64,000 nucleotides of DNA, taken from IMG/VR virus record IMGVR_UViG_3300042870_001240; one strand, given 5' to 3'. The stretch's first letter is position 1. Every line of letters begins with the position of its first letter. The notes below the pieces were generated by a model that did not search any database, was not told where the DNA came from, and saw only the letters and a program-made list of their open reading frames with translations. Below are positions 2 through 61,714 of this stretch, one piece after another. This DNA comes from a virus (taxonomy: Duplodnaviria > Caudoviricetes). The position numbers and the translations under genes were made by a program.

Positions 2-151
2 TATGTAACTAAATTTACAATATACCAACCAAACATAAACATAATATTATCTAATGACTACATCGTTGAAAAGGGAGACTTACAAGTAGATTTAGGTTTT
101 GCTTTTGATAACATAGTAATGTATTCAGACGATATCTCAGGAGACAAATGA
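2..151 (+). CDS. 3' fragment of hypothetical protein
   Basis: Open frame from the window edge (YVTKF...ISGDK*); its TGA overlaps the ATG at 148 (ATGA). Confidence 0.55.
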   Translation, partial: YVTKFTIYQPNINIILSNDYIVEKGDLQVDLGFAFDNIVMYSDDISGDK

Positions 152-474
152 AATATATAATAACAGAAAATAAGTTAAACAATGTCGCGTTAAGTTGGAT
201 GAATCAAAACTTCAGTCCATACCAGTTAGAAATTTTTGAATCTGAAAAATATCCAAATTCTGTTTTTTTTAGAAAAAATGGAAAAGTTGTGATGCAACAA
301 GATAAAAAATCTAAGTTTTTTTGGTTTGATTATGATAAAATTTGGTCATTTTTTAAATTGTTTTTTGGTATGCAATACCCACAAATACAAGACGTTCTGA
401 ACTACTGGTTGGAGGATACTTTCAAATTAGAGGGTTATACACCTAATCCCTACGAATTAACATATACACTTTAG
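148..474 (+). CDS. Array-linked small protein, paralog A (108 aa)
   Basis: 73/99 identical to 18295-18609 by manual alignment up to GYTP; LEDTFKLEGYTP is encoded by repeat 408-443. Confidence 0.85.
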   Translation: MKYIITENKLNNVALSWMNQNFSPYQLEIFESEKYPNSVFFRKNGKVVMQQDKKSKFFWFDYDKIWSFFKLFFGMQYPQIQDVLNYWLEDTFKLEGYTPNPYELTYTL

Positions 475-497
475 TTGGAGAATACCCTCAAATTAAA
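408..497 (+). CRISPR. CRISPR-like mini-array A: repeat, 30-nt spacer, truncated repeat
   Basis: GTTGGAGGATACTTTCAAATTAGAGGGTTATACACC (408-443), spacer 444-473, partial repeat GTTGGAGAATACCCTCAAATTAAA (474-497). Confidence 0.65.
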
Positions 498-507
498 ATA
501 AAAAGAA

Positions 508-891
508 ATGAAATATATAATAACAGAAAATAAAATGTATAACACGTTTTCATCTTTCCTAACTTCATTAGGGTTAAAGGACGTTATGTCACATGGTAAT
601 GGTTTAGATAGTTGTTATTATCCTGTTGAGTGGTTTGAATACGACTATGATGAGGATGGGTATGAACCAGCACCTTGTTTATTCAGATACTTTAATAATG
701 GAAAAGATTACAGTGAATGGCATGGAGTAAGTGATACTTATTCAAATCAAGATTACCCGATAATTGAGTTGGATTGGGAAATGTATAAACAAATTGAGGA
801 TTTATTTGGTGAAAAAACGATTACTGAGTTTGGTCCTAAATTTTTTCAAAATGTTGTAAATCAAGAAGTTAAAACTATAGTATCAGAGTAA
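508..891 (+). CDS. Hypothetical protein with MKYIITENK N-terminus
   Basis: First 26 nt identical to the 148 gene; body unrelated; no repeat at its 3' end. Confidence 0.8.
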   Translation: MKYIITENKMYNTFSSFLTSLGLKDVMSHGNGLDSCYYPVEWFEYDYDEDGYEPAPCLFRYFNNGKDYSEWHGVSDTYSNQDYPIIELDWEMYKQIEDLFGEKTITEFGPKFFQNVVNQEVKTIVSE

Positions 892-9987: not shown

Positions 9988-10938
9988 TTAATGTGGGTGT
10001 TGAAATACAAAGATAGTATTATCTTTTGACAAATAGTCTCTATTGTCAGAAATAATTTTTTCTATAATTCCTCTTTCTAAATCCTCAGAGAATGGACTAG
10101 GGTGAATATACCCATCAGGATTAACAACCATTTTATTGGTTCCCTCAACAGTTCCCGCTTTATTAATAGTAATTTCAAACTTTATCTTATCTCTAACTTT
10201 TTTAGCGTTTGTAATAGTATAGTCAACCTTCTTCTTATCATCTCCCCATCCTATAGTTAATAGTTTTTTAGTCCCTTTCAACACTTTAGTAAACTTATCA
10301 CTAAAGTTACTAACTCTATTAGTTTTAACATTAGATAAACTCTCACCATTCATGATGGATTTTATCTCATCAGGTGTTACAGAAATAACTTCATCTTTTA
10401 TATTACTATCATAAGAATTTCTTTTGGGGTTTGACCCTGATAAATGTTTTCCTGTTGATGATGAGTAACTATTACTTACTCGATACCATTGGTCTTCTAT
10501 AAATAAATAAATTGGATACCAATTATATGATGTAACAACATAATACCATTGGTTATTAGGGTTAACATCCCAATGTCCTTCTAAATTAGACCCTTTGAAT
10601 GGGATTCTACCTGTCGTGTAATTATATGCACTGTTGTTAGGTGTTCTTCTTTGTTTGAAATCTCTATAATGAACAAAGTTCTTACCATCTAATTTTTCGT
10701 AATCACCTTCTGGTCTGTAGTTGGCGGTATAAACCTCATAGTAGAATCTTGCGTCGTTAGGACTTCTACCAATCATTGGCATCATTACCTTAATTAATTC
10801 AAGTAATTTTGGTTGAGTTTTGACTTCATCCTTATGTTTGTTAAGGTATTTGAACAATCTAATTTCTTTCTCAGATAATGGTTTGTCGTCAGAACCTTCC
10901 AATTGTTCTCTTAATATTCTTTTAATTAAATTTTTCAT
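9988..10938 (-). CDS. Hypothetical protein
   Basis: Probable start MKNLIKRILREQL at 10938 after ATATTTATA. Confidence 0.75.
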   Translation of the reverse strand: MKNLIKRILREQLEGSDDKPLSEKEIRLFKYLNKHKDEVKTQPKLLELIKVMMPMIGRSPNDARFYYEVYTANYRPEGDYEKLDGKNFVHYRDFKQRRTPNNSAYNYTTGRIPFKGSNLEGHWDVNPNNQWYYVVTSYNWYPIYLFIEDQWYRVSNSYSSSTGKHLSGSNPKRNSYDSNIKDEVISVTPDEIKSIMNGESLSNVKTNRVSNFSDKFTKVLKGTKKLLTIGWGDDKKKVDYTITNAKKVRDKIKFEITINKAGTVEGTNKMVVNPDGYIHPSPFSEDLERGIIEKIISDNRDYLSKDNTIFVFQHPH

Positions 10939-11040
10939 GTTACATATAAATATACATGAAAAAGAAAGTTCATTCATAAACACAAAGATAATAAAAAACC
11001 CCCACTAAAAATAGTGAGGGTCTTGATTATTTTTTAATTT

Positions 11041-11481
11041 TTACTTTAAGAATCTTAATTTATATAAAGTCGAATTAAGTAACTTACAAACATTGTCGAT
11101 TTCATTTTGGATGTATGAATCTTTACAACAATCTCTTAAGTCTTCAACTTTACTGTATAAGTCTTTAAAATAGTTAACCGTTGTTGTGGTGTCTTTATAA
11201 TCCTCAATGTCATATTTTTTATACCCTTTAATAATACTATACTTACCTTGATAAGATTCAATTAAACCGTCAACAATATCTCCAATCTCGTCATAGTATC
11301 CACCCAATGCACTGTGTTCAGCGAATGATTTAGTTTGTAAATGTAAAGTATGTGCTTGAGTTCTTGAATGAAACAATAACGACACCATCTCAATAAAATC
11401 TTTAGTGTTTGTTTTTTGTTCGATTAGTAAACCTCGTTTGGTCACTTCTTCAAATAGTCTATCTTTAAAATCTTGGTTCAT
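11041..11481 (-). CDS. DUF5856-like ferritin-like protein
   Basis: HSRTQAHTLHLQTKSFAEHSALGGYYD...DGLIESYQG; probable start at 11481. Confidence 0.7.
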   Translation of the reverse strand: MNQDFKDRLFEEVTKRGLLIEQKTNTKDFIEMVSLLFHSRTQAHTLHLQTKSFAEHSALGGYYDEIGDIVDGLIESYQGKYSIIKGYKKYDIEDYKDTTTTVNYFKDLYSKVEDLRDCCKDSYIQNEIDNVCKLLNSTLYKLRFLK

Positions 11482-13860: not shown

Positions 13861-13883
13861 ATTATTTATTTTTATTTATTTGT

Positions 13884-13955
13884 AGTCAGGACAGGATTCG
13901 AACCTATACAATAGAGCAATCGCTCAAAGCGTTTAACCAATTTCGCCACCTGACT
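13884..13955 (-). tRNA. tRNA-like element 1 (non-canonical anticodon arm)
   Basis: AGTCAGG/CCTGACT acceptor, GCG/CGC D-arm, ATAGG-TTCGAAT-CCTGT T-arm; anticodon loop 4-6 nt; no encoded CCA. Confidence 0.6.
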
Positions 13956-14032: not shown

Positions 14033-14138
14033 TGGTAGTCAGGACAGGAATCGAACCTGTAACTTCTTTGTCATACAGAGTGCCATTAGCTGTTATCTCA
14101 ACCTTGATGGTGATACGTTACCACTACGCCACCTGACT
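14033..14138 (-). tRNA. tRNA-like element 2 (expanded, ACCA end)
   Basis: Same acceptor stem, GCGT-AGTGGTA-ACGT D-arm, ACAGG-TTCGATT-CCTGT T-arm; irregular anticodon arm plus ~35-nt extra region. Confidence 0.6.
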
Positions 14139-14985: not shown

Positions 14986-15007
14986 TTAATAAGATATTTT
15001 TAATAAA

Positions 15008-15325
15008 TTACTTACCAATAATTAAATCATCAAAGTTTAATTTTCCCATACCATCATTAGATTCTTTACTGGTAAACTCATCATACATAAATGATTGAAC
15101 CACAGATGTAATACTTTGTTCCGCTTGGGCTATCTTAGTTTCCTGCCAGTCTTCAAGTTGTTCTCCGTCTTCCATTTCTTCCCACATCTTATAAGCTAAT
15201 GTCGCAATGGTGAACAACTGTTGCTTTGACATGTAAGACCCCTCTTCTTGATTTTCAGTCAAGGAATTTTTAACTCGGTTAGTTAATTTTTCCAATTGTT
15301 TTTCCGATATAATAATATTTTTCAT
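15008..15325 (-). CDS. Hypothetical phage protein (ISEKQL N-terminus)
   Basis: 105-aa ORF; ATATTTATA upstream. Confidence 0.75.
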   Translation of the reverse strand: MKNIIISEKQLEKLTNRVKNSLTENQEEGSYMSKQQLFTIATLAYKMWEEMEDGEQLEDWQETKIAQAEQSITSVVQSFMYDEFTSKESNDGMGKLNFDDLIIGK

Positions 15326-15448
15326 GTTAGTCTTTATCTATAAATATACAACAGTAACATAAAAAAGGAGACGATTTCTCATCTCCTTAATTTGGGGCCG
15401 ATAATTCAGCGAATCCACCACCTTATTTTTCTAAACAAGGAAACAAAA

Positions 15449-15682
15449 CTATTCAGAAATAAGACTTGCATTATCATTTGTAATGACGCTATCAACATTT
15501 GATTGGTTTTCAACAATATGTTCGGTTTGAGTTGGTTTTGATAAATAATCATAACCCTCTTTCAACTTAATCACCGTAAAGGCAAACATAAGAATAAGTC
15601 CTATGAAAATCAACTTAACAACTTGTTTCCAAGTTTTAAATAAGATGTATAAAATTACCGCTAAAAATATAAGAAATCCCAT
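15449..15682 (-). CDS. Small membrane protein
   Basis: Two hydrophobic segments. Confidence 0.6.
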   Translation of the reverse strand: MGFLIFLAVILYILFKTWKQVVKLIFIGLILMFAFTVIKLKEGYDYLSKPTQTEHIVENQSNVDSVITNDNASLISE

Positions 15683-15694
15683 AATTGTTTATTT

Positions 15695-15970
15695 TTATTT
15701 TGTTACTAATGCTTCTACTTTACTTTTCATGTGGTCAGCCAAACCATAACTGTCTACCGATGTTAATACGATTGAATCAACCAAGTGTTTGAATGGTATG
15801 TGTACTAAGAAGTCCACCCCATTGAAGAATGTTAAGTCGTTCTTCAGTTCCAAACATCCGTGGATTATTTTAAGGAACAATTTGAACTGTGTTCCATCCA
15901 CGAATGTTTCGTCAACCAATTTACCGAATTTCTCGTTCTCAATTCTGATGTTGTATGTTGAAGTTGTCAT
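15695..15970 (-). CDS. Hypothetical protein
   Basis: 91-aa ORF; TAAATTTG upstream. Confidence 0.7.
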   Translation of the reverse strand: MTTSTYNIRIENEKFGKLVDETFVDGTQFKLFLKIIHGCLELKNDLTFFNGVDFLVHIPFKHLVDSIVLTSVDSYGLADHMKSKVEALVTK

Positions 15971-16003
15971 ATCTATTTGATTTATTCTACAAATTTACAA
16001 AAA

Positions 16004-16774
16004 CTATTTCATATTTCCTAATGCCTCGATAACAGAATCAGCACTATTTCCTCCCATAGATACTTGAGAGATAGTGAACACGATTTTACCATCAACCTCT
16101 GCGTAGTTAAGGATAACCGCACTTCCGTTAGGATTTTTTACCACGATTTGGTTTCTTGTAGTGTTAATATTATTAACTTTGTTACCACCAAAATCAATGT
16201 CAGAATTTCTGTAACGTTTGAACGCTTCACCGAAGGCGCTCATACGAACTTCGTTATCTTTAATTCTTCGGTTATGAACATCCCACATTCCTTTAACGTA
16301 GTCCTCAACAATTGTTACAACAGGTTTACCTGTTTTGTAATAGGTCTTAGTATCATCACTACCAACTTTAACTCTTAACTTATAACCATGACTCTTACTT
16401 CTCCAACCACCCCTTGGAGTTGTTGTGTGCTCTTCAACATAAACAGTAATACGATTGTTAGACTCACCTTCAGGTAGTTCACCCTTGTAAACAATTTTAG
16501 AACTGTTATAGTTCTCGGAAATTTCCCCAATTTTAACTTGGTTATAACCAATACGGTTACCTTGAGAGTCTAATTTATAAACATTTACAGGCCAAGTTTG
16601 AATATTCTGAGTTTTAACCAACTCAAATTTATCGGAATGTTTTTGAATTTCTTTGAAGTACCTATCCCACTCAGACTCAATTTTTGTCTGTTCAGATTTG
16701 AAATTATCCGCAGTTTTTTGAGCTGAGGCGATATTGTCTTTGATGTGTTTTTGTTGGTGTTCTTTTAGGGTCAT
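16004..16774 (-). CDS. Hypothetical protein
   Basis: 256-aa ORF with host-type promoter. Confidence 0.75.
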   Translation of the reverse strand: MTLKEHQQKHIKDNIASAQKTADNFKSEQTKIESEWDRYFKEIQKHSDKFELVKTQNIQTWPVNVYKLDSQGNRIGYNQVKIGEISENYNSSKIVYKGELPEGESNNRITVYVEEHTTTPRGGWRSKSHGYKLRVKVGSDDTKTYYKTGKPVVTIVEDYVKGMWDVHNRRIKDNEVRMSAFGEAFKRYRNSDIDFGGNKVNNINTTRNQIVVKNPNGSAVILNYAEVDGKIVFTISQVSMGGNSADSVIEALGNMK

Positions 16775-16799
16775 GGTAGAAGTTTTTGTGTTTGTTTTA

Positions 16800-16831
16800 C
16801 AAATATAAGCACATTATTTTAATTGGCCAAA
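16800..16831 (-). promoter_or_regulatory. Bacteroidota-type promoter at the distal end of array B
   Basis: TTTG-N20-TATATTTG. Confidence 0.7.
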
Positions 16832-16853
16832 TTTATTTAAAGACTAAATATCC

Positions 16854-16955
16854 GGTGTTAGACCCTTCAAATTATAGGTCTCTTCCAACTATAAAGAACG
16901 CAGGTTATTATTTGAAAAAGGTGTTAGACCCTTTAAATTATAGGTCTCTTCCAAC
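16854..16955 (-). CRISPR. CRISPR-like mini-array B: two 36-nt repeats, one 30-nt spacer
   Basis: GTTGGAAGAGACCTATAATTT(A/G)AAGGGTCTAACACC at 16920-16955 and 16854-16889; spacer 16890-16919. Confidence 0.75.
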
Positions 16956-17197
16956 CAGTATGTTATAATACCCTTCATTTGTTCATATTCCAACCCAAAA
17001 AAGGATTTTAAAAACGACCAAATTTCATTGTAATTTATATAAACATACCCATTTTTTTTATCCTGATAATAATAAAATAATGGTAATCTATCTTCATTAA
17101 CATAAATTGTTCTATCACCCTTAACTATTGGTTTTAAATTACCAAATTTATCGTTAAGCCATGTTATCACGACCTTATCTAATTTATTTTTAATCAT
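16889..17197 (-). CDS. Array-linked small protein, paralog B (102 aa)
   Basis: QDKK...IWSF...FFG..Y...YWLEETYNLKGLTP shared with A and C. Confidence 0.85.
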   Translation of the reverse strand: MIKNKLDKVVITWLNDKFGNLKPIVKGDRTIYVNEDRLPLFYYYQDKKNGYVYINYNEIWSFLKSFFGLEYEQMKGIITYWLEETYNLKGLTPFSNNNLRSL

Positions 17198-17215
17198 TTT
17201 ATCTTTAATTCTTTA

Positions 17216-17641
17216 TTATATAGATTGTTTGGATTCCCTATCTAAATCTCGTAATTTAATAGAATTTCTTTTATCCCATAGTTTTTTACCTTTAGCCAAC
17301 ACAATATCAACCTTCAATAATCCCCTGTCATTCTCATATAATACATGAGGAATGATTGTATATCCCTTAACCAACTCTGATTCAAGTTTTCTTAATTGTT
17401 TTTTCTTCAATAACAATTTTTTATCGGTAGCAATATTATCATTCCCAATTCCTTGGATAAGAACCCCTTTCATATATAACTCCCCATTATTAAAATAACA
17501 GAACGAGTCAGTCATAGAGACTTTCCCTTCTCGGATTCTCTTAACCTCAACACCAGTCAATTTAATACCCGCCAAGAATGTTTCCTCAATAAAATACTCA
17601 AACTTAACTTTTTTATTCTCAATACGAACTTTTATCTTCAT
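17216..17641 (-). CDS. smpB: SsrA-binding protein SmpB
   Basis: FEYFIEETFLAGIKLTGVEVK...KKLLL...AKGKKLWDKR; probable start at 17641. Confidence 0.9.
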   Translation of the reverse strand: MKIKVRIENKKVKFEYFIEETFLAGIKLTGVEVKRIREGKVSMTDSFCYFNNGELYMKGVLIQGIGNDNIATDKKLLLKKKQLRKLESELVKGYTIIPHVLYENDRGLLKVDIVLAKGKKLWDKRNSIKLRDLDRESKQSI

Positions 17642-17791
17642 AAACACAAAGATAAATATAAAAAACAAAAAACCCTAACAAATTTTTACATTCACCAGGG
17701 TTTAATATTAACCAACTAAGAAAGGGGTCGTTGGGACTATTTAGGTTATAAATATAACAAATTTTTTAAAAAGAAAAAGATATTTATAAAT

Positions 17792-18133
17792 ATGATATTA
17801 AAAATCAACGATAACAAATTTAAAGTGATGGTAATGATGACTCAAAAAGATACTCAAAAGGGTATGATGGGTCGTGACTTTGATTCTAACTTTAATGGTA
17901 TGTTATTTCTAATGGACAAAGGTCCTCACGGTTTTTGGATGAAGGATTGTATTATCCCATTGGATATTATTTTTATTGACGGTAATACAATAACTAAAAT
18001 ACACCATAGTTGTCCTCCATGTAAATCGGAAGACTGTCCTAGTTATGTCGGAACAGGAGATACTATTTTAGAACTTAGAGGCGGTACTTGCGGGGAATTA
18101 AGTATTAAAGAGGGGGATAAGATTCTATACTAA
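17792..18133 (+). CDS. DUF192 family protein
   Basis: GMMGR...GMLF...FWMKDCIIPLDIIFID...ILELRGG. Confidence 0.85.
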   Translation: MILKINDNKFKVMVMMTQKDTQKGMMGRDFDSNFNGMLFLMDKGPHGFWMKDCIIPLDIIFIDGNTITKIHHSCPPCKSEDCPSYVGTGDTILELRGGTCGELSIKEGDKILY

Positions 18134-18349
18134 TTTGAGAGTATCCTCCAACTGGATGTAATGGAGCGAATTGCGAAGCGTGGTGTATAACCCTTTAATT
18201 TGAGAGTCTCTTCCAACTAGTCATGCTTTCCGCTGAACCGTCTTTCAGGTGTATAACCCTTTAATTTGAGAGTCTCTTCCAACTACTAACGCATTCAAGA
18301 CTGGAAATGGCTCGGTGTATAACCCTTTAATTTGAGAGTCTCTTCCAAC
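18131..18349 (-). CRISPR. CRISPR-like mini-array C: three identical 36-nt repeats, one truncated repeat, spacers of 30/30/29 nt
   Basis: GTTGGAAGAGACTCTCAAATTAAAGGGTTATACACC at 18314-18349, 18248-18283 and 18182-18217; partial repeat 18131-18152. Confidence 0.85.
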
Positions 18350-18609
18350 CAGTAACTCAGAAATTCCTGTATTTCTTGGTATTCCATACCAAAAAACGAT
18401 TCAAAAAATGACCAAATTTCATCATAATCAAACAAAAAATCTTTATTTTTTTTATCCTGCTCCATCACAACTTCTCCATTTTTTTTAAAAAAAATTGAAT
18501 TAGGATATTTTTCAGATTTAACAATTTCTAACTGGTCTAAACCAAAGTTTTTGTTCATCCAACTTAACACGACATTGTTTAACTTATTTTCCGTTATTAT
18601 ATATTTCAT
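18295..18609 (-). CDS. Array-linked small protein, paralog C (104 aa)
   Basis: LEETLKLKGYTP comes from the repeat; SHFQS* comes from spacer 1. Confidence 0.85.
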   Translation of the reverse strand: MKYIITENKLNNVVLSWMNKNFGLDQLEIVKSEKYPNSIFFKKNGEVVMEQDKKNKDFLFDYDEIWSFFESFFGMEYQEIQEFLSYWLEETLKLKGYTPSHFQS

Positions 18610-18623
18610 TATTATGGATGATT

Positions 18624-20030
18624 TTATCCGTTATTAATCTTACTTTGTAAAACTCTCACAAATTCATTCTGAATCATTTTTGTGAATTTAACATATGGTG
18701 AGTCTTCGCTCTCAGAATCATATTTATAAGCTCCTGCCGGTGGTCTTTTTGACCTTCCAAGATAACTTAAACCCGAAATGTTAGTGATACATTTATGACC
18801 CCCACTGTTAGCCTGAATCAAATCCCAAGCATTAATTGTAATCTTATCTAACATCTCTTTTTCCTCCTCAGATAATTCGGTAAAAGGTTTTTCCATCATT
18901 TTACCAATATGAGTTAATGTTTCTTTACCGTTGTCCATTGTTTTGTATTTGTTACCATATAAAGCAACAAAGTCTTTAAATGTAAAACCGACAGACTCCG
19001 GTCCAAAACCTTTTGACCTTTCCGATATCCACTTAATTGTTGATAATGGGATTTCTTTTTCTTTTAAACTACCTTCCCACTTTGAAAGTACTTCTTGGGC
19101 AATTTCTCCTAAGTTAACCCCCTTTAATTCTCTTTCTTTCTTATAAGGATTACAAGACGCTTGTACCAAACCTAACGGCCAAGCAATAACAATAAAATCC
19201 GCTTCAGGATTATTTTTGAATGGGGTGTATCTATCATAAGACCCTGGCTTCATCATATTCCCACCACCGTATTGAACAATAATGTTACCCTCAACTTTAA
19301 CATTCGGATTGGTTTTCATTTGATTGATATAGGTTTCTTTATTCTTTTGTAATTCAGGTATTTTTGCATAACCTTTCTCAACCATAATTCTTTTAATGTT
19401 TTGTAATATATTCATTAAAGATGGTGAACATTTTAATACGAGTTCTTCTAAAAACCCTGGTTTGTTTTTAAAGGCCAATAACAATTTATTTGCGACCAAA
19501 CCTAAAGCCATTTTGTTTTTGGTTAAAGACGAATCTTTATCTAACTTAAATAAGTAATTAATAACTTGGTCAACAGAAATATCATTCATTGCAAAGTTTG
19601 CGGAATCTACAGTCGAAATTAATAAGATATCACTACTTGGGAATATTTCTCTTGGTGATACCACTTGGGAAATTGTCTCTACGTTGGACCTTGAGTGTCT
19701 AAATGATACTGATTTTGTGTCCTCAGCTCCCGCTTGTCTATCATGATGGTCAGTATGAATAACAAACATTGGTTTACCGTGAGCAAAATCAACAAGGACT
19801 GGCATTGTATCTCCCTGAGCATCATTCTTTTTAACGGAAAATTCTTTGTCCCCGTATTGGATGACATGGGCATCAACTACTTTAACCCCGTTGTCCTCAA
19901 GATATTTTTTCATCGCAATTGCGGTAGTAACACCATCTAAATCTTGATGGAAATAAATCTCCGCTTTAGGATATCTTTTAGCTAGTAGATTAATATCTCG
20001 TAACCCACTTTCTTTAATTAACTTTTTCAT
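18624..20030 (-). CDS. DHH-family phosphoesterase-like protein
   Basis: HQDLDG, LVDF, TDHH and SGGHK motifs. Confidence 0.7.
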   Translation of the reverse strand: MKKLIKESGLRDINLLAKRYPKAEIYFHQDLDGVTTAIAMKKYLEDNGVKVVDAHVIQYGDKEFSVKKNDAQGDTMPVLVDFAHGKPMFVIHTDHHDRQAGAEDTKSVSFRHSRSNVETISQVVSPREIFPSSDILLISTVDSANFAMNDISVDQVINYLFKLDKDSSLTKNKMALGLVANKLLLAFKNKPGFLEELVLKCSPSLMNILQNIKRIMVEKGYAKIPELQKNKETYINQMKTNPNVKVEGNIIVQYGGGNMMKPGSYDRYTPFKNNPEADFIVIAWPLGLVQASCNPYKKERELKGVNLGEIAQEVLSKWEGSLKEKEIPLSTIKWISERSKGFGPESVGFTFKDFVALYGNKYKTMDNGKETLTHIGKMMEKPFTELSEEEKEMLDKITINAWDLIQANSGGHKCITNISGLSYLGRSKRPPAGAYKYDSESEDSPYVKFTKMIQNEFVRVLQSKINNG

Positions 20031-20031
20031 A

Positions 20032-21174
20032 TTATATTAACGCTCCAATAACTTTACTCGCAGTTCCTCCCCCACCTCCGAATAATGATGCTAAGGCAGA
20101 TACTGGGTCTAACCCTCCTCCTCCACCTCCTGAAGATTGAGGTGACGTTGATGATGTTGATGATGTCGGTGGAGGTGGTGGGGAAACCTCTCCTTGACCT
20201 AAATCTTCTTGTGCGTATTGTTGGGCTTGATTAGTTTTTTCGTATTCATCAACTCTACCTTGTAAATTACCATATTGTTCTTCTAACTCATCAGGACCAA
20301 CAAAATTAGCAACCCCTAAAAAATCTAACAATCCTAAATACCATTTTGTTCTTCTCATAAGTGACCTTGTTGCTCTGTTACCCCAAAGTCTACCCATACC
20401 ACCCGAAATATATTTATTTGCAAAACTTTGTCCTTCACCTTTATAGTCTCTGAAACCTCTAAATGAACTTTGTTTCTTTAACTCGGTTGCTAATAATTCT
20501 TTTTCAGATTTAGTTAACGCCGCCTCACCTTTAGCCATAAGTTTACCTGTAATTTCGGTAGACGCTTTCATTTCTTTACTTGCTTTACCAAAAATACTAA
20601 CAAACTCTTCAACAGTTTTTACTAATCCAGTACCTAATAATGGTACTCTTCCAACAGAAGCTCTTAACATCGCAATTAATTTACTTCCCCAAGAAGGAAC
20701 CTTCTCAACTAATTTGGCAATAGGTCCACCCGCCATTTTTGCGGTCTTAGCCATTTTGGTAGCATCTCCTGCGATTGTTGCGGCTTTAAACGCTTTGGAT
20801 GCACTTCCACCTATTTTCATAACACCCACAACAGGTTTTGCAAGTAAATCTCCTAAATATGGTACTGCTGATACCCAAGATAAAATTGCAAATAATTTAT
20901 CTCCTTGTCTCCAATAACTAATTCCATTAACAATATCCACAACACCTGTAGGGTCAAAAATACCCACAATATCCCCAACTGTATTATACCAACGAGATTC
21001 GGTGACCAACATAGCCTTTTCAGGGTAAATTACTTTTAAAAATTCAAGAACAAATTGTCTATCAATTCCTGATAATTTATTCCATTTTTCGTCAAGAAGT
21101 TTTATTTGTTCTTCTTTGTATATTTTAACCATCGTTTCTTTTAGTTCCGATTCGGTAAGTGATAATTTATTCAT
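20032..21174 (-). CDS. Hypothetical protein with pre-toxin TG-like segment
   Basis: DPTGVVDIVNGISYWRQGDKLFAILSWVSAVPYLGD; Pro/Ser/Gly-rich tail. Confidence 0.5.
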   Translation of the reverse strand: MNKLSLTESELKETMVKIYKEEQIKLLDEKWNKLSGIDRQFVLEFLKVIYPEKAMLVTESRWYNTVGDIVGIFDPTGVVDIVNGISYWRQGDKLFAILSWVSAVPYLGDLLAKPVVGVMKIGGSASKAFKAATIAGDATKMAKTAKMAGGPIAKLVEKVPSWGSKLIAMLRASVGRVPLLGTGLVKTVEEFVSIFGKASKEMKASTEITGKLMAKGEAALTKSEKELLATELKKQSSFRGFRDYKGEGQSFANKYISGGMGRLWGNRATRSLMRRTKWYLGLLDFLGVANFVGPDELEEQYGNLQGRVDEYEKTNQAQQYAQEDLGQGEVSPPPPPTSSTSSTSPQSSGGGGGGLDPVSALASLFGGGGGTASKVIGALI

Positions 21175-21214
21175 ATGATATATTTTTATTTATAAATATC
21201 ATAGAAAATAAAAA

Positions 21215-21235
21215 AAGGGGTTGATTAAACCCCTT
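21215..21235 (-). terminator. Intrinsic terminator
   Basis: AAGGGGTT-GATT-AAACCCCTT. Confidence 0.6.
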
Positions 21236-22091
21236 CTTCAAAAACTAATTTACTTTGTTTTTTATCATCAACAAATGCTTGTATTCGTTTACGAGATATT
21301 TCACAATAATCAGGACTTAATTCAATCCCAATCCATCTCCTATCTAATATCTCAGCAGCAACACATGACGTTCCACTTCCGTTGAATGGGTCAAGAACAA
21401 TATCATTCTTATAAGATAATATCTTAATCGCCCTTGTAGGGATATCCATTGAGAATGTTGCCTTGGTTAAGGATTTAGTGTCAGCAAAATATTTCCATTG
21501 CCCAAACACCAATTCCATAAAATCTTTTTTATCAATATCCTCATAAACAACTTTTTTCTTAATTGTTCCATCCTCTTGTTCAATATCAGTTGGAACTCCC
21601 TTCCATTGGGGTTCTCCCTTAACAGTCTTAATATGTTTATGTTTGTAGGCTAATATAACACACTCTTTTGGGTTATAAATATAAGGGCTGGATGGACTCA
21701 TCCAACTACCCCAAGCAGTCGTCTTACTTCTATGGGGACTGTCTTCCTCAAGGTCAACGATACCGAAGAACTTATAACCAATTCTTTTCATAACTTGATA
21801 GACTTCAGAACAAAAGAAAATTCTACCACCTTTATCTTGTCTATTTATTTCGTAGGGGATATTTAACGCAATTCTACCATCGTCTTTTAATAACTGATAC
21901 GCTTCAGTTAACCATTCTTTAGTAAATTTTAGATATTCATCAAAATATACATCATCATTATGAACATCATAATTAATCCCAACACCATAAGGACAACTAG
22001 TCACAATTAAGTCAATTGAGTTTATCGGCATTTTTGACATTATGTCAATACAATCACCATTAATAACTTTACCCGTATAATTTTCTATCAT
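21225..22091 (-). CDS. Site-specific DNA methyltransferase (N4/N6, beta class)
   Basis: GDC, TSCPY (SPPY-like), VLDPFNGSGT. Confidence 0.85.
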   Translation of the reverse strand: MIENYTGKVINGDCIDIMSKMPINSIDLIVTSCPYGVGINYDVHNDDVYFDEYLKFTKEWLTEAYQLLKDDGRIALNIPYEINRQDKGGRIFFCSEVYQVMKRIGYKFFGIVDLEEDSPHRSKTTAWGSWMSPSSPYIYNPKECVILAYKHKHIKTVKGEPQWKGVPTDIEQEDGTIKKKVVYEDIDKKDFMELVFGQWKYFADTKSLTKATFSMDIPTRAIKILSYKNDIVLDPFNGSGTSCVAAEILDRRWIGIELSPDYCEISRKRIQAFVDDKKQSKLVFEEGV

Positions 22092-51241: not shown

Positions 51242-51913
51242 TTATATGTTTTTTGTTAGGTTCGACCCTTTCATATAGACCGCACCTTGATTTATGTTTA
51301 GTTGTTCTAATTGTTTGATAGTCCCCTCAAGTTCTTGTATTTTTGTATTTTTATCTGTAAGTTCTTTTCTTAATTTATTCAAGGTATCTTGTAACATCAC
51401 CACTTTATCGTTAGACACACCAACTTCTTTAATCACCTCAACAATCTTTTCCACTTCAACAATCTTCTCAACCTCAACAATCTTCTCAATAATAATCGGT
51501 TCAGGATTGTCACAAATCTTTCCTATATTTGTGACAGAATTTTCTTCTTTTTTGTCGTAAATATATACTATTTTTTCGACAGGAACTTCCACTTTTATCT
51601 CTTTAATAACCTCTCTATCAACATACTCAATAACTTTAACTTCCGTGGGGGGTGTGGGAACTTCTTTAATGATTTCAACGATTTTTTCCACAATAACCTC
51701 AACAGGAACCTCCACCCGTTTTTCAACAATGATTTCTTTTACTTCATTATCAACCTCACCAATGATACCATATTTTTCTAAATTAAAACCTTTCTTAAAA
51801 CATTTATTAATAAATCCATCAATATCCATAATCTTGTTTAACAAACAAAAATCATAGATTTCTTTGGTATTTTTAATATCAATATTATACATTTGTGAGT
51901 TTTTCTTTTCCAT
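51242..51913 (-). CDS. Protein with VE(K/V)xV low-complexity repeats and coiled coil
   Basis: VEVPVEVIVEKIVE; IVEVEK repeats. Confidence 0.7.
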   Translation of the reverse strand: MEKKNSQMYNIDIKNTKEIYDFCLLNKIMDIDGFINKCFKKGFNLEKYGIIGEVDNEVKEIIVEKRVEVPVEVIVEKIVEIIKEVPTPPTEVKVIEYVDREVIKEIKVEVPVEKIVYIYDKKEENSVTNIGKICDNPEPIIIEKIVEVEKIVEVEKIVEVIKEVGVSNDKVVMLQDTLNKLRKELTDKNTKIQELEGTIKQLEQLNINQGAVYMKGSNLTKNI

Positions 51914-59179: not shown

Positions 59180-61714
59180 TTAAATATCGAATTTAATCAA
59201 AAACTGCTGAATACCTTGTCTTAAAACGGGTGATTGCATTTTTGATATAATCATAAGATTTTTGTTCGAATCGTAAAGCCCTATTTCACTTACGAAAGTA
59301 GGTTTACCACTTGTCCATGTCGGATTCGATGTTGTTTGAAATTCCGCTTGACCTAAATTAATCTTATATTTCATTTCATAGATAGTTGCTTGGATGTCAG
59401 TTTCCAAAGAACCATAGAAATAATACTCATCACCAAAATTCAAAGAAGTTCCTGTATATCCTACAGGTGTTAATGGAATGTAAGTGTTTAAGTTATATGC
59501 CGGAGCATTGTCATACTCTTGTTGGGTGATAACAAATGTATTACCCGTCAACCCTTCTTGGGTGATATAACCATTAACCATTGTTGATGATAACTGACTT
59601 GTGAAATCAATAGCAACCCACTCAGAAGAGTTAGGTCTCTCATTACCAACAACTTTTTGACAAAGAATCTCAAATTTATTAGCCAAGAATCCTTGAGTTA
59701 CGTCACAGTATATCGGACATATTGATGTTGTTGTTGTAGTTACAGGATTATAAATTGTTGTTGTAGTCGTTGTAGGATTATAACTTGTTGTTGTAGTCGT
59801 TGTAGGATAATAAGATTGATTTAAACAACCAAATTCCCCACCGAATCTAACCGCAACATTTTGGGATGTAATCGTAGTACAATCAATATTAGGTCCTTGA
59901 ATAAACGAATAATAATTACAATGTAATGAATCGGTAAATAAATCTGTATTACTTAATCTATATGTGACATACAACGATTCTGTTAAACCTGTTAATATAC
60001 CCGTAACTGTTGAACTATCGTTACCACAAGTGTTTGGAGTAATTAATGATATCTTAGGTGATGGTATTGTCCAATTTCTATTTGATTTGTAGGACATTGC
60101 TGCAATGATTTCCTCATCATCAATAATAACCAACTTATCATCAGGGAATACTTTACCAACTCTATTAGGAATACCGTTAGCATTTGCGTTTGTGTCCCAT
60201 AGATGGTAATATCTCATACCAGGGTTATTCATATCAACATTCTTAGTTGACTGAAGGTATTGAACTTGGAAAAGATTTAAATCTTCAAATCCTGGAGGGT
60301 CAACCCAAAATGTTTGACCATTACAACAATCAGGATTTTTATGCCACATTAACCAAGGGATATGTACTTTAAAGTTTCTCGCCTCTCCCGTAGTATCAGC
60401 AGGATTTGATGGGTCAAATGGTTCCAATGCAAATTTTTCACCGTAGAATAAATCCACCGTTTGGTTTGTATAATGGATAATTCCAATCGCCTTTTGTTGT
60501 TCAGGTAACACATTAATTTTATCTCCAAAAGAGTTAAAATAATACACTGAACTACTATCTGTTTGTCCACTACTTGACGCATATCCAAAGTATTCTTTAG
60601 CCCCTAAGTAAGCGACAGAACCAAAATTAGTATAGTCTTTACTGATTGATGAGATTAGACCTGCAGGATTTTCTGACCATGGAATATTCATATTCCAAAC
60701 TTTAACATCAAACTCGTCAGTATAACAAACTGATTCAAAATTAATGACATTGTCATTCCAATGACGGCTAGGTGTAATACTATCGTATATCGTTGTCATG
60801 TTAGGAGGATAAACTATCACTCTACCATAACAAACGCTTGTTACATTTATAAAATTAGGTGTAGGTCTATCTAATGTTATCTCACCCAAACAAATGTTAA
60901 CAATTTTATATGTTAACATTGAGTAACAACTACTCATATCAACCAAACAATCAGGTGGTGATGGTAGTGGACATGCTCTACTTGTTGACGGTGTTAAACA
61001 AGGAGTTTTAGACGGTGTAGGAGTAGGTGTTGGTGAATCACAAGGGAACGAATTAGATGATGTTGGCGTAGGTGTTGGTGTTGAACCACTTTGAGGACTT
61101 ACCGAAGGCGTCACTGAGATTGTTGGTGTTGGTGTCGGTGTCGGGAGATTTAAACAAATACAATTATCCATACCTTTACCATCATAATAAATTGTGATAA
61201 TATCTCCAATAGCAGGCTCTCTAACTGAATCAGGATTACTTGGATTACTAATAAGAGTAATTTTATTGGTTCCAACTAATGAGTTCATCTGAACAACGTA
61301 GTTAGCATTGATAGCGTAAAAATTGTTAGTTAACGCACTCCAACTAATTGTCTCAGCACTTGTGTTACCAGTAAAGAACCCTCTCATTACCGCTCTATTA
61401 AATACAGGACTTACTTGAGAATCCATAAAAGGAATTCCATAAGTATTACCCGCTCTCCCATCAACATAATAAGGATATTTTACATTACTTTTATTTGATT
61501 CTGGAATCCCACTTGAATTTTGAGCATTGAAGCTCGGCTCTAATATTACAGTATCAAATTGATTATAACTTGTTGGTAAGGTATTGTATGAGACCTCACT
61601 ATCTCCAACTTGGAAATAGGAGATGTTAAAATTTCCTTGTGACAATTTTTCTCGTCCAATATCGGTTAATCTTGTATTAATTAACCCTGCAGTATTTTTT
61701 ATTATAAATCCCAT
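59180..61714 (-). CDS. Probable baseplate/tail structural protein
   Basis: RLTDIGREKL N-terminus, SEIGLYD...ISKMQSP C-terminus, PT/T-rich linkers. Confidence 0.65.
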   Translation of the reverse strand: MGFIIKNTAGLINTRLTDIGREKLSQGNFNISYFQVGDSEVSYNTLPTSYNQFDTVILEPSFNAQNSSGIPESNKSNVKYPYYVDGRAGNTYGIPFMDSQVSPVFNRAVMRGFFTGNTSAETISWSALTNNFYAINANYVVQMNSLVGTNKITLISNPSNPDSVREPAIGDIITIYYDGKGMDNCICLNLPTPTPTPTISVTPSVSPQSGSTPTPTPTSSNSFPCDSPTPTPTPSKTPCLTPSTSRACPLPSPPDCLVDMSSCYSMLTYKIVNICLGEITLDRPTPNFINVTSVCYGRVIVYPPNMTTIYDSITPSRHWNDNVINFESVCYTDEFDVKVWNMNIPWSENPAGLISSISKDYTNFGSVAYLGAKEYFGYASSSGQTDSSSVYYFNSFGDKINVLPEQQKAIGIIHYTNQTVDLFYGEKFALEPFDPSNPADTTGEARNFKVHIPWLMWHKNPDCCNGQTFWVDPPGFEDLNLFQVQYLQSTKNVDMNNPGMRYYHLWDTNANANGIPNRVGKVFPDDKLVIIDDEEIIAAMSYKSNRNWTIPSPKISLITPNTCGNDSSTVTGILTGLTESLYVTYRLSNTDLFTDSLHCNYYSFIQGPNIDCTTITSQNVAVRFGGEFGCLNQSYYPTTTTTTSYNPTTTTTTIYNPVTTTTTSICPIYCDVTQGFLANKFEILCQKVVGNERPNSSEWVAIDFTSQLSSTMVNGYITQEGLTGNTFVITQQEYDNAPAYNLNTYIPLTPVGYTGTSLNFGDEYYFYGSLETDIQATIYEMKYKINLGQAEFQTTSNPTWTSGKPTFVSEIGLYDSNKNLMIISKMQSPVLRQGIQQFLIKFDI
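59725..59812 (-). repeat. 30-nt coding tandem repeat (YxPTTTTTTx) x3
   Basis: TTGTTGTTGTAGTCGTTGTAGGATTATAA-like units. Confidence 0.75.

Follow-up and report, generated by a model that had tools for sequence, protein, structure and literature searches.

A stretch of 64,000 nucleotides of DNA from a lake jumbo phage of about 290 kb (referred to below as the window) contains a genuine CRISPR-type mini-array, array C, of a family which is growing in related phages. The repeat belongs with those of type VI and, judged from its sequence and predicted fold, favours a Cas13a-like over a Cas13b-like design. The explanation we prefer, tentatively and with something short of even confidence, is that of a phage CRISPR array lacking cas genes, in which the end of a small gene serves as the leader, Cas1-Cas2 of the host acts in trans and the partner is a Cas13a-like effector of the host. 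The broader proposition, that a family of type VI-like arrays without cas genes, with a coding first repeat, is maintained in lake jumbo phages, still being extended and used as a guide library or decoy set for an RNA-targeting effector of the host, is possible, and we hold it with less assurance.

Array C is built from a 36-mer present in three exact copies, where 100 shuffled sequences gave an expectation of zero. Its features are collected in Table 1 with those of two sister arrays, A and B. The minus-strand sequence of the repeat, GTTGGAAGAGACTCTCAAATTAAAGGGTTATACACC, has GTTGG at its start and CACC at its end, and contains an inner stem, ACUCU/AGGGU, of -4.4 kcal/mol by RNAfold. The length, the two ends and the stem had been reported in the first-pass annotation and are borne out. 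The array extends past the interval 18182-18349, with a 29-nt spacer followed by a half repeat which adjoins a convergent DUF192 gene and overlaps its stop codon. The spacers between the identical repeats are unique and mutually unrelated, at 30, 30 and 29 nt. Arrays A and B, cited by the same annotation for their stems, are also real, with stems ACTTTC/GAGGGT and AGACC/GGTCT, respectively. The gene directly after array A (508-891, plus strand) begins with MKYIITENK, as do the array-bearing genes, then diverges and contains no repeat.

Table 1. Positions of the arrays and associated genes in the window.
Feature	Positions	Strand	Remarks
Array A	408..495	+	repeat 408-443, 30-nt spacer 444-473, half repeat 474-495
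Gene carrying first repeat of array A	148..474	+	paralogue, 108 aa
Array B	16854..16955	-	repeats 16920-16955 and 16854-16889 (one mismatch apart), 30-nt spacer 16890-16919
Gene carrying first repeat of array B (P0002)	16889..17197	-	paralogue, 102 aa
DUF192 gene	17792..18133	+	PF02643, 78 bits; convergent, bounds array C
Array C, terminal half repeat	18131..18152	-	GTTGGAGGATACTCTCAAATTA; only the first 22 nt retained
Array C, spacer 3	18153..18181	-	29 nt
Array C, repeat 3	18182..18217	-	exact copy of the 36-mer
Array C, spacer 2	18218..18247	-	30 nt
Array C, repeat 2	18248..18283	-	exact copy of the 36-mer
Array C, spacer 1	18284..18313	-	30 nt, 43% GC
Array C, repeat 1	18314..18349	-	within the small gene; leader-proximal end
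Small phage gene (P0001)	18295..18609	-	104 aa; last 13 conserved residues, WLEETLKLKGYTP, encoded by repeat 1; stop codon in spacer 1

Approximately 130 related phage loci were fetched, and these yielded 200 arrays and 246 unique spacers. The general features of CRISPR which are present are identical repeats, unique spacers of near-constant length and polarised growth at the leader-proximal end. Spacers of 30 nt are the most frequent (119), followed by those of 29 nt (49), 31 nt (46) and 32 nt (25), and repeat periods of 65-68 nt are common. The lengths 29, 31 and 32 nt are not multiples of the frame, so that the reading frame is often broken. The mean GC content of the spacers is 38%, compared to about 30-31% for the phage DNA. 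Seven pairs of arrays were informative about the direction of growth; five have only gene-distal spacers in common (L012/L013, L009/L014, L014/L147, L148/L156 and L156/L208), and none shares proximal spacers only. Sharing restricted to distal spacers is the signature of leader-proximal acquisition, and thus the gene end acts as the leader. In the close relatives L082, L083, L092 and L098 the repeat and the locus are the same and the spacers wholly different. TA is the commonest final dinucleotide of a spacer (19 of 101), and a G is rare at the start (9 of 101); a final TA, together with the G of the next repeat, makes TAG, which is in frame for 30-nt spacers.

A half repeat terminates 127 of the 200 related arrays. 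Identity to the preceding repeat is 90% in the first 22 nt of this half repeat and only 31% in the last 14 nt. Single-spacer arrays number 73, and in the majority of these just the repeat upstream of the spacer is intact, which makes sense only in a design where the guide follows the repeat; such arrays could not give a spacer-bearing Cas13b crRNA. Systems with the repeat-then-guide order can disable their last repeat, and those with the opposite order, such as VI-B, cannot (Migur et al. 2026, PMC13187072). Two Cas13a arrays (L020 and L240) likewise finish with a repeat cut short at about 20-22 nt, in parallel to the phage half repeat.

The first repeat of each of the three arrays in the window coincides with the 3' end of one of the paralogous genes of about 100 aa and provides its last 12-13 codons, with the stop codon in spacer 1. 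The protein motif encoded by the repeat is W-L-E-(E/D)-T-x-x-L-x-G-x-T-P, and in the genes of this window translation runs only 5-9 codons into the first spacer. The homologues of P0001, about 200 in number, all come from uncultured viral or metagenomic sequences. The confident AF2 model of P0001 (pLDDT 89) places the residues encoded by the repeat within its final helix, and homologues lacking an array (L108 and L113) retain the full 13-residue motif; from these two observations the segment serves as both protein and repeat. Foldseek found no match in the PDB for the fold of the small protein, and in the Atlas only viral hypothetical clusters. Codon choice in the repeat departs from that of the genome: TTG is used at 53 of 54 positions (16% of Leu in this genome), CTC at 20 of 27 (1% of Leu), GAG at 43 of 50 (30% of Glu) and AAG at 25 of 25 (22% of Lys). 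The retention of codons which are rare in the genome implies that some bases are conserved for a reason beyond the amino acid, and the repeat is evidently not shaped by the protein alone. One II-C spacer of a Flavobacterium MAG, G001 (L061:13066-13094), has an 18-nt match to the beginning of the small gene (window 18581-18598), and its frame reads KIKRITENK, compared to MKYIITENK in the small gene. This match hints that the host lineage of G001 targets a relative of the phage.

The first-pass annotation had also proposed that pairing is retained despite divergence. This applies to the stems of arrays A, B and C, but is not sustained by covariation across the family. Among 61 distinct repeats, 70.5% of cells at the hairpin are paired, compared to 69.0% in shuffles, and 28 of 500 shuffles reach the observed value. 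No significant covariation of the hairpin was found in these repeats (score 0.231, against 0.222 in shuffles), and the stem is absent from some lineages which are gaining spacers (L009 type and L012 type). The 3' end is ACACC in 41 of the 61 and ACAAC in 4. Conservation following the amino acids only, with no covariation, had been named in advance as evidence against the Cas13b reading; the covariation is indeed missing, but the rare codons are a constraint at the nucleotide level.

A VI-A repeat has an inner stem-loop with unpaired flanks, and its stem and 3' flank form the 5' handle of the crRNA. A tandem pattern derived from the phage repeat was used to scan 185,579 species genomes. The scan returned a single phage fragment together with six arrays whose repeats are different, and found no array with the phage-type repeat in Bacteroidota or other bacteria. 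Two of the arrays are directly behind cas13a, one in a Thalassospira MAG (L020, GTTGGAGATCACCCCCAAATTGAGGGGGACTACACC) and one in a Betaproteobacteria MAG (L017/L239). Picks made with such a pattern are biased toward the phage repeat, and the Cas13a clade was therefore resampled by protein homology. The repeats of the clade have the form GTTGGAG...ACTACACC, with the end ACT(A/G)CACC. The nearest in the protein-homology sample is L240, chosen by Cas13a homology only, which matches the window repeat at 26/36 positions ungapped and 30 gapped. The repeat of L017/L239 matches at 27/36 ungapped, a value inflated by the phage-derived pattern through which two of the closest VI-A repeats were found. 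With gaps there are 29-30 matches across L240 and L017/L239, and more distant members of the clade give 20-23/36. The resemblance to VI-A repeats, which extends along all 36 nt, has a z of 6.5-7.5 against shuffled controls. The rare-codon bases G4, C14, C16 and G25 of the phage repeat agree with the Cas13a repeats, and all Cas13a repeats whose 3' end was read finish with CACC or CACG (that of L247 was unread).

The likeness to the VI-A clade (L020, L017/L239 and the metagenomic L240-L246) covers the 36-nt length, the GTTGGA(G/A) start and (A/G)CACC end, an inner stem of about 5 bp, a CAAAT-rich loop, unpaired termini, spacers mostly of 30 nt with a longer tail, and a leader which abuts the GTTGG end. 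The predicted folds of L020 and L017 have the inner stem only, with loose ends, as do the phage repeats; the flanks are 9-11 nt, the stem 5-6 bp and the 3' flank 7-8 nt. The VI-A-like features which are present, as read from sequence and fold, are thus the inner stem with loose ends, the likeness in sequence and the disabled last repeat. There are also differences. The phage stem is weaker and AU/GU-rich (-7 to -9.8 kcal/mol in VI-A repeats), the 3' flank is TATACACC in the phage and GACTACACC in the clade, spacer length varies more loosely within the clade (28-39 nt), and only in the phage is the first repeat protein-coding. A cas13a gene adjoins the array in the clade, whereas there is none anywhere in the phage. 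The known carriers are GC-rich contigs, some labelled Pseudomonadota or Bdellovibrionales MAGs, and their GC content of 50-64% is unlike that of the host expected for an AT-rich lake phage of 31% GC. The neighbours of the array in L017 are TRAP transporter genes, which are uninformative about the array. In a Bdellovibrionales MAG (L021:4529-7528) an array of eight repeats (GTTGGAGACACCCTCATAATTAGGGGGTATGCCAGC, a repeat also present in L016) lies directly behind an ORF of 821 aa without an NCBIfam or PADLOC match; this ORF could be a compact Cas effector, undescribed or poorly modelled.

No Cas13a, Cas13b, Cas9, Cas1 or Cas2 was found in the window, in a 296-kb relative rated 100% complete by CheckV (G809), or in a 261-kb relative with an estimated completeness of 89%. 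Cas13a was also not found in phage genomes G809-G811, in fragments G804-G808, or in any of 386 genomes of the candidate host genus, that of G001. One phage fragment binned in a MAG and the 18-nt II-C spacer match point weakly to Flavobacterium as the host. In 401 Flavobacteriaceae genomes Cas9 occurs in 91-100, and together with adaptation genes in about 25% of genomes. A type II-C partner was considered for the phage repeats, since the half repeat is about the length of the repeat part of a Cas9 crRNA, and was ruled out, as the II-C repeats of Flavobacteriaceae (a 36-nt family, GTTGTGGTTTGATTA..., and one of 46-47 nt) are unrelated, matching the phage repeat at 14-15/36 with z from -0.4 to 2.0, ie at the level of shuffles. 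Spacers of array C gave chance matches only against INPHARED phages, and IMG/VR contains no exact copy of spacer 1 or spacer 2. Against 401 Flavobacterium genomes array C had only partial matches, at chance level and in unrelated genes. None of the 246 spacers had a convincing protospacer in the approximately 130 related loci or in two relatives which are near-complete. In the opposite direction, the G001 spacer is the sole match of a host CRISPR spacer to the phage. Positions 15000-22000 had no megablast match in phages. Five lake metatranscriptome runs contain small shares of the stretch.

In the preferred explanation, Cas1-Cas2 of the host would insert spacers in trans during infection, and the array would be transcribed together with the small gene. 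A Cas13a-like effector supplied by the host would bind the inner hairpin and 3' flank of each intact repeat, with the spacer downstream of that repeat as the guide, and the crippled last repeat would yield no additional crRNA. The RNAs of the array could be working guides, or decoys which soak up the effector. Uptake of spacers in trans had been suggested in the first-pass annotation, and it fits both the gene-proximal growth in relatives and the lack of cas1, cas2, cas9 and cas13 in the complete 296-kb relative.

The same annotation had assigned the repeat to type VI-B. In a VI-B repeat, of 36 nt, the 5' GUUG pairs with the 3' CAAC, and the whole repeat is one hairpin which is recognised by Cas13b. 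If the phage repeats were of this type, the phage RNAs would be substrates or decoys for Cas13b of Bacteroidota, the 3' end of the gene with repeat 1 would correspond to an 'extraneous crRNA' in competition with the crRNAs of the host, and II-C Cas1-Cas2 would add the spacers in trans. We regard this as rather improbable, although a good deal fits. The Bergeyella repeat which had been cited for comparison is letter for letter a repeat found next to cas13b in Flavobacteriaceae (G037 and L029). It was said to align well, which is so only with indels: 27 matches in 37 columns with two indels, nearly the VI-A level once gapped, and 16/36 ungapped. The VI-B repeats of Flavobacteriaceae (Bergeyella-type G037 and Flavobacterium G719) are alike in the 36-nt repeat with a GTTG(G) start, in spacers of about 30 nt, in an inner stem of the CUCUC/GAGGG type and in adaptation genes which do not adjoin the array. 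In verified VI-B arrays, as here, the GTTGG end is the one next to the leader. In Flavobacterium columnare the II-C Cas1-Cas2 supplies spacers in trans to VI-B arrays, although the repeats of the two types differ (Hoikkala et al. 2021, PMC8092290), Cas9 with adaptation genes is available in a quarter or so of the candidate host family, and forced production of extraneous crRNA lowers Cas13b defence (PMC13187072). The likeness of cas13b-linked repeats to the window repeat has a z of 3.7-5.4 against shuffles. However, without gaps the four verified VI-B repeats agree with it at only 16-20/36 positions, and all four are symmetric and fold with a closed GUUG/CAAC terminal stem of 4-7 bp around the inner stem. 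The phage repeat is asymmetric, with its CACC end, and has no closed terminal stem because of a U2-C35 mismatch. Each VI-B spacer needs an intact downstream repeat, whereas most phage arrays finish with a half repeat, and the many single-spacer arrays would be left without a usable Cas13b crRNA. VI-B spacers are strictly of 30 nt, and two VI-B arrays have long interrupted repeats ('long DR'), units which are absent from the phage arrays; spacers of 31-32 nt make up 29% of those in the phages, whereas spacers of at least 31 nt number 2 of 290 in II-C and 0 of 47 in VI-B arrays of Flavobacteriaceae. Cas13b is rare, being found in 4 of 401 Flavobacteriaceae genomes and in 2 of 386 of the candidate host genus, one of these broken. 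What stands of the assignment, then, is a type VI kind of repeat, clearly unlike the local II-C repeats; a comparison with repeat families, proposed along with it, gave no Rfam CRISPR-DR match at the gathering score or at E <= 10. In the verified VI-B arrays (L142:6318-6933 and 10733-11414; L029:11347-13613) repeats are split by an insert of about 50 nt, as GTTGTAACT..TTTT / insert / TTGAAAGGTAAACACAAC, and in L142 cas13b is flanked by two arrays with near-identical leaders.

A serious rival, unlikely in our estimation but less so than a Cas13b partner, dispenses with the effector. In such a 'neo-CRISPR' the 3' end of the small gene would merely resemble a leader-repeat junction to the host Cas1-Cas2, which would write spacers into the phage genome, and the array would have no guide function, being a by-product, an adaptation sink or a source of variable tails. 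The full motif is encoded in array-less homologues and is structured in the predicted fold, from which it follows that the repeat may be ancestral coding sequence. The hairpin does not covary, arrays grow in lineages without the stem, the effector was not found in the phage nor, mostly, in candidate hosts, and no spacer target was found among related phages. Against this, the fixed rare codons agree with Cas13a repeat bases, and the likeness to VI-A extends over the whole repeat. The sharp boundary of the half repeat is not that of neutral decay, and occurs also in real Cas13a arrays. In this window few first-spacer codons are translated, and spacers of 29, 31 and 32 nt break the frame. It is very improbable that the structure is not CRISPR at all, and is a coding tandem repeat made by slippage or duplication of the gene 3' end. 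A period of 66 nt does equal 22 codons and the first copy is coding, but unrelated spacers separate identical repeats, other periods in the range already given are common, the frame closes within the first spacer, and turnover in relatives is polarised, with the distal spacers in common.

Compact arrays without cas genes have been described in huge phages (Al-Shayeb et al. 2020, PMC7162821; review PMC11656645). These, and virus-borne mini-arrays, are like the present arrays in being short, in having no adaptation or interference genes and in their presumed use of host Cas proteins. The described viral mini-arrays have repeats identical to those of the host and spacers which target related viruses; here neither was found, in 185,579 species genomes and with 246 spacers, respectively. 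They differ also in that here the first repeat is inside a gene and each genome has many paralogous arrays. Viral repeat units are known for all CRISPR types except type VI, as RNA anti-CRISPRs, or Racrs (Camara-Wilpert et al. 2023, PMC10651486). Racrs are likewise copies of CRISPR repeats encoded by phages, with the potential for unproductive loading of Cas proteins, but are solitary units, whereas the phage arrays here are growing and have a coding first repeat. The papers cited here on huge-phage compact arrays and viral repeat units contain no description of arrays which begin inside a gene.

If the broader proposition, of type VI-like arrays kept and extended in lake jumbo phages, is true, these would be the first family of viral arrays of type VI and would fill the type VI gap among viral repeat units, and they would provide the first instance of a protein-coding gene in the role of CRISPR leader. 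Processing of repeat 1 would also be linked physically to the translation of the gene. The arrays represent acquisition of spacers into a virus genome without adaptation genes, and a CRISPR repeat doubling as conserved protein-coding sequence. The choice between a Cas13a-type and a Cas13b partner alters both the enzyme to be used in experiments and the RNA ends to be expected.

Several other features were observed in the window and in a related phage contig. At 14036-14138 (minus strand) Rfam identifies a tRNA of 103 nt (47 bits) which is unreported by ARAGORN and adjoins a tRNA-Gln at 13882-13955; possibly this tRNA contains an insertion or intron. Tandem repeats occur at 59726-59818 (30 nt, 3.1 copies), inside the ORF at 59180-61714, and at 51435-51489 (18 nt, 3.1 copies). 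The related contig (L153:8229-10085, minus strand) encodes a full Hsp70/DnaK (859 bits), with stretches of 80-82% DNA identity to a Flavobacteriaceae chromosome (L063).
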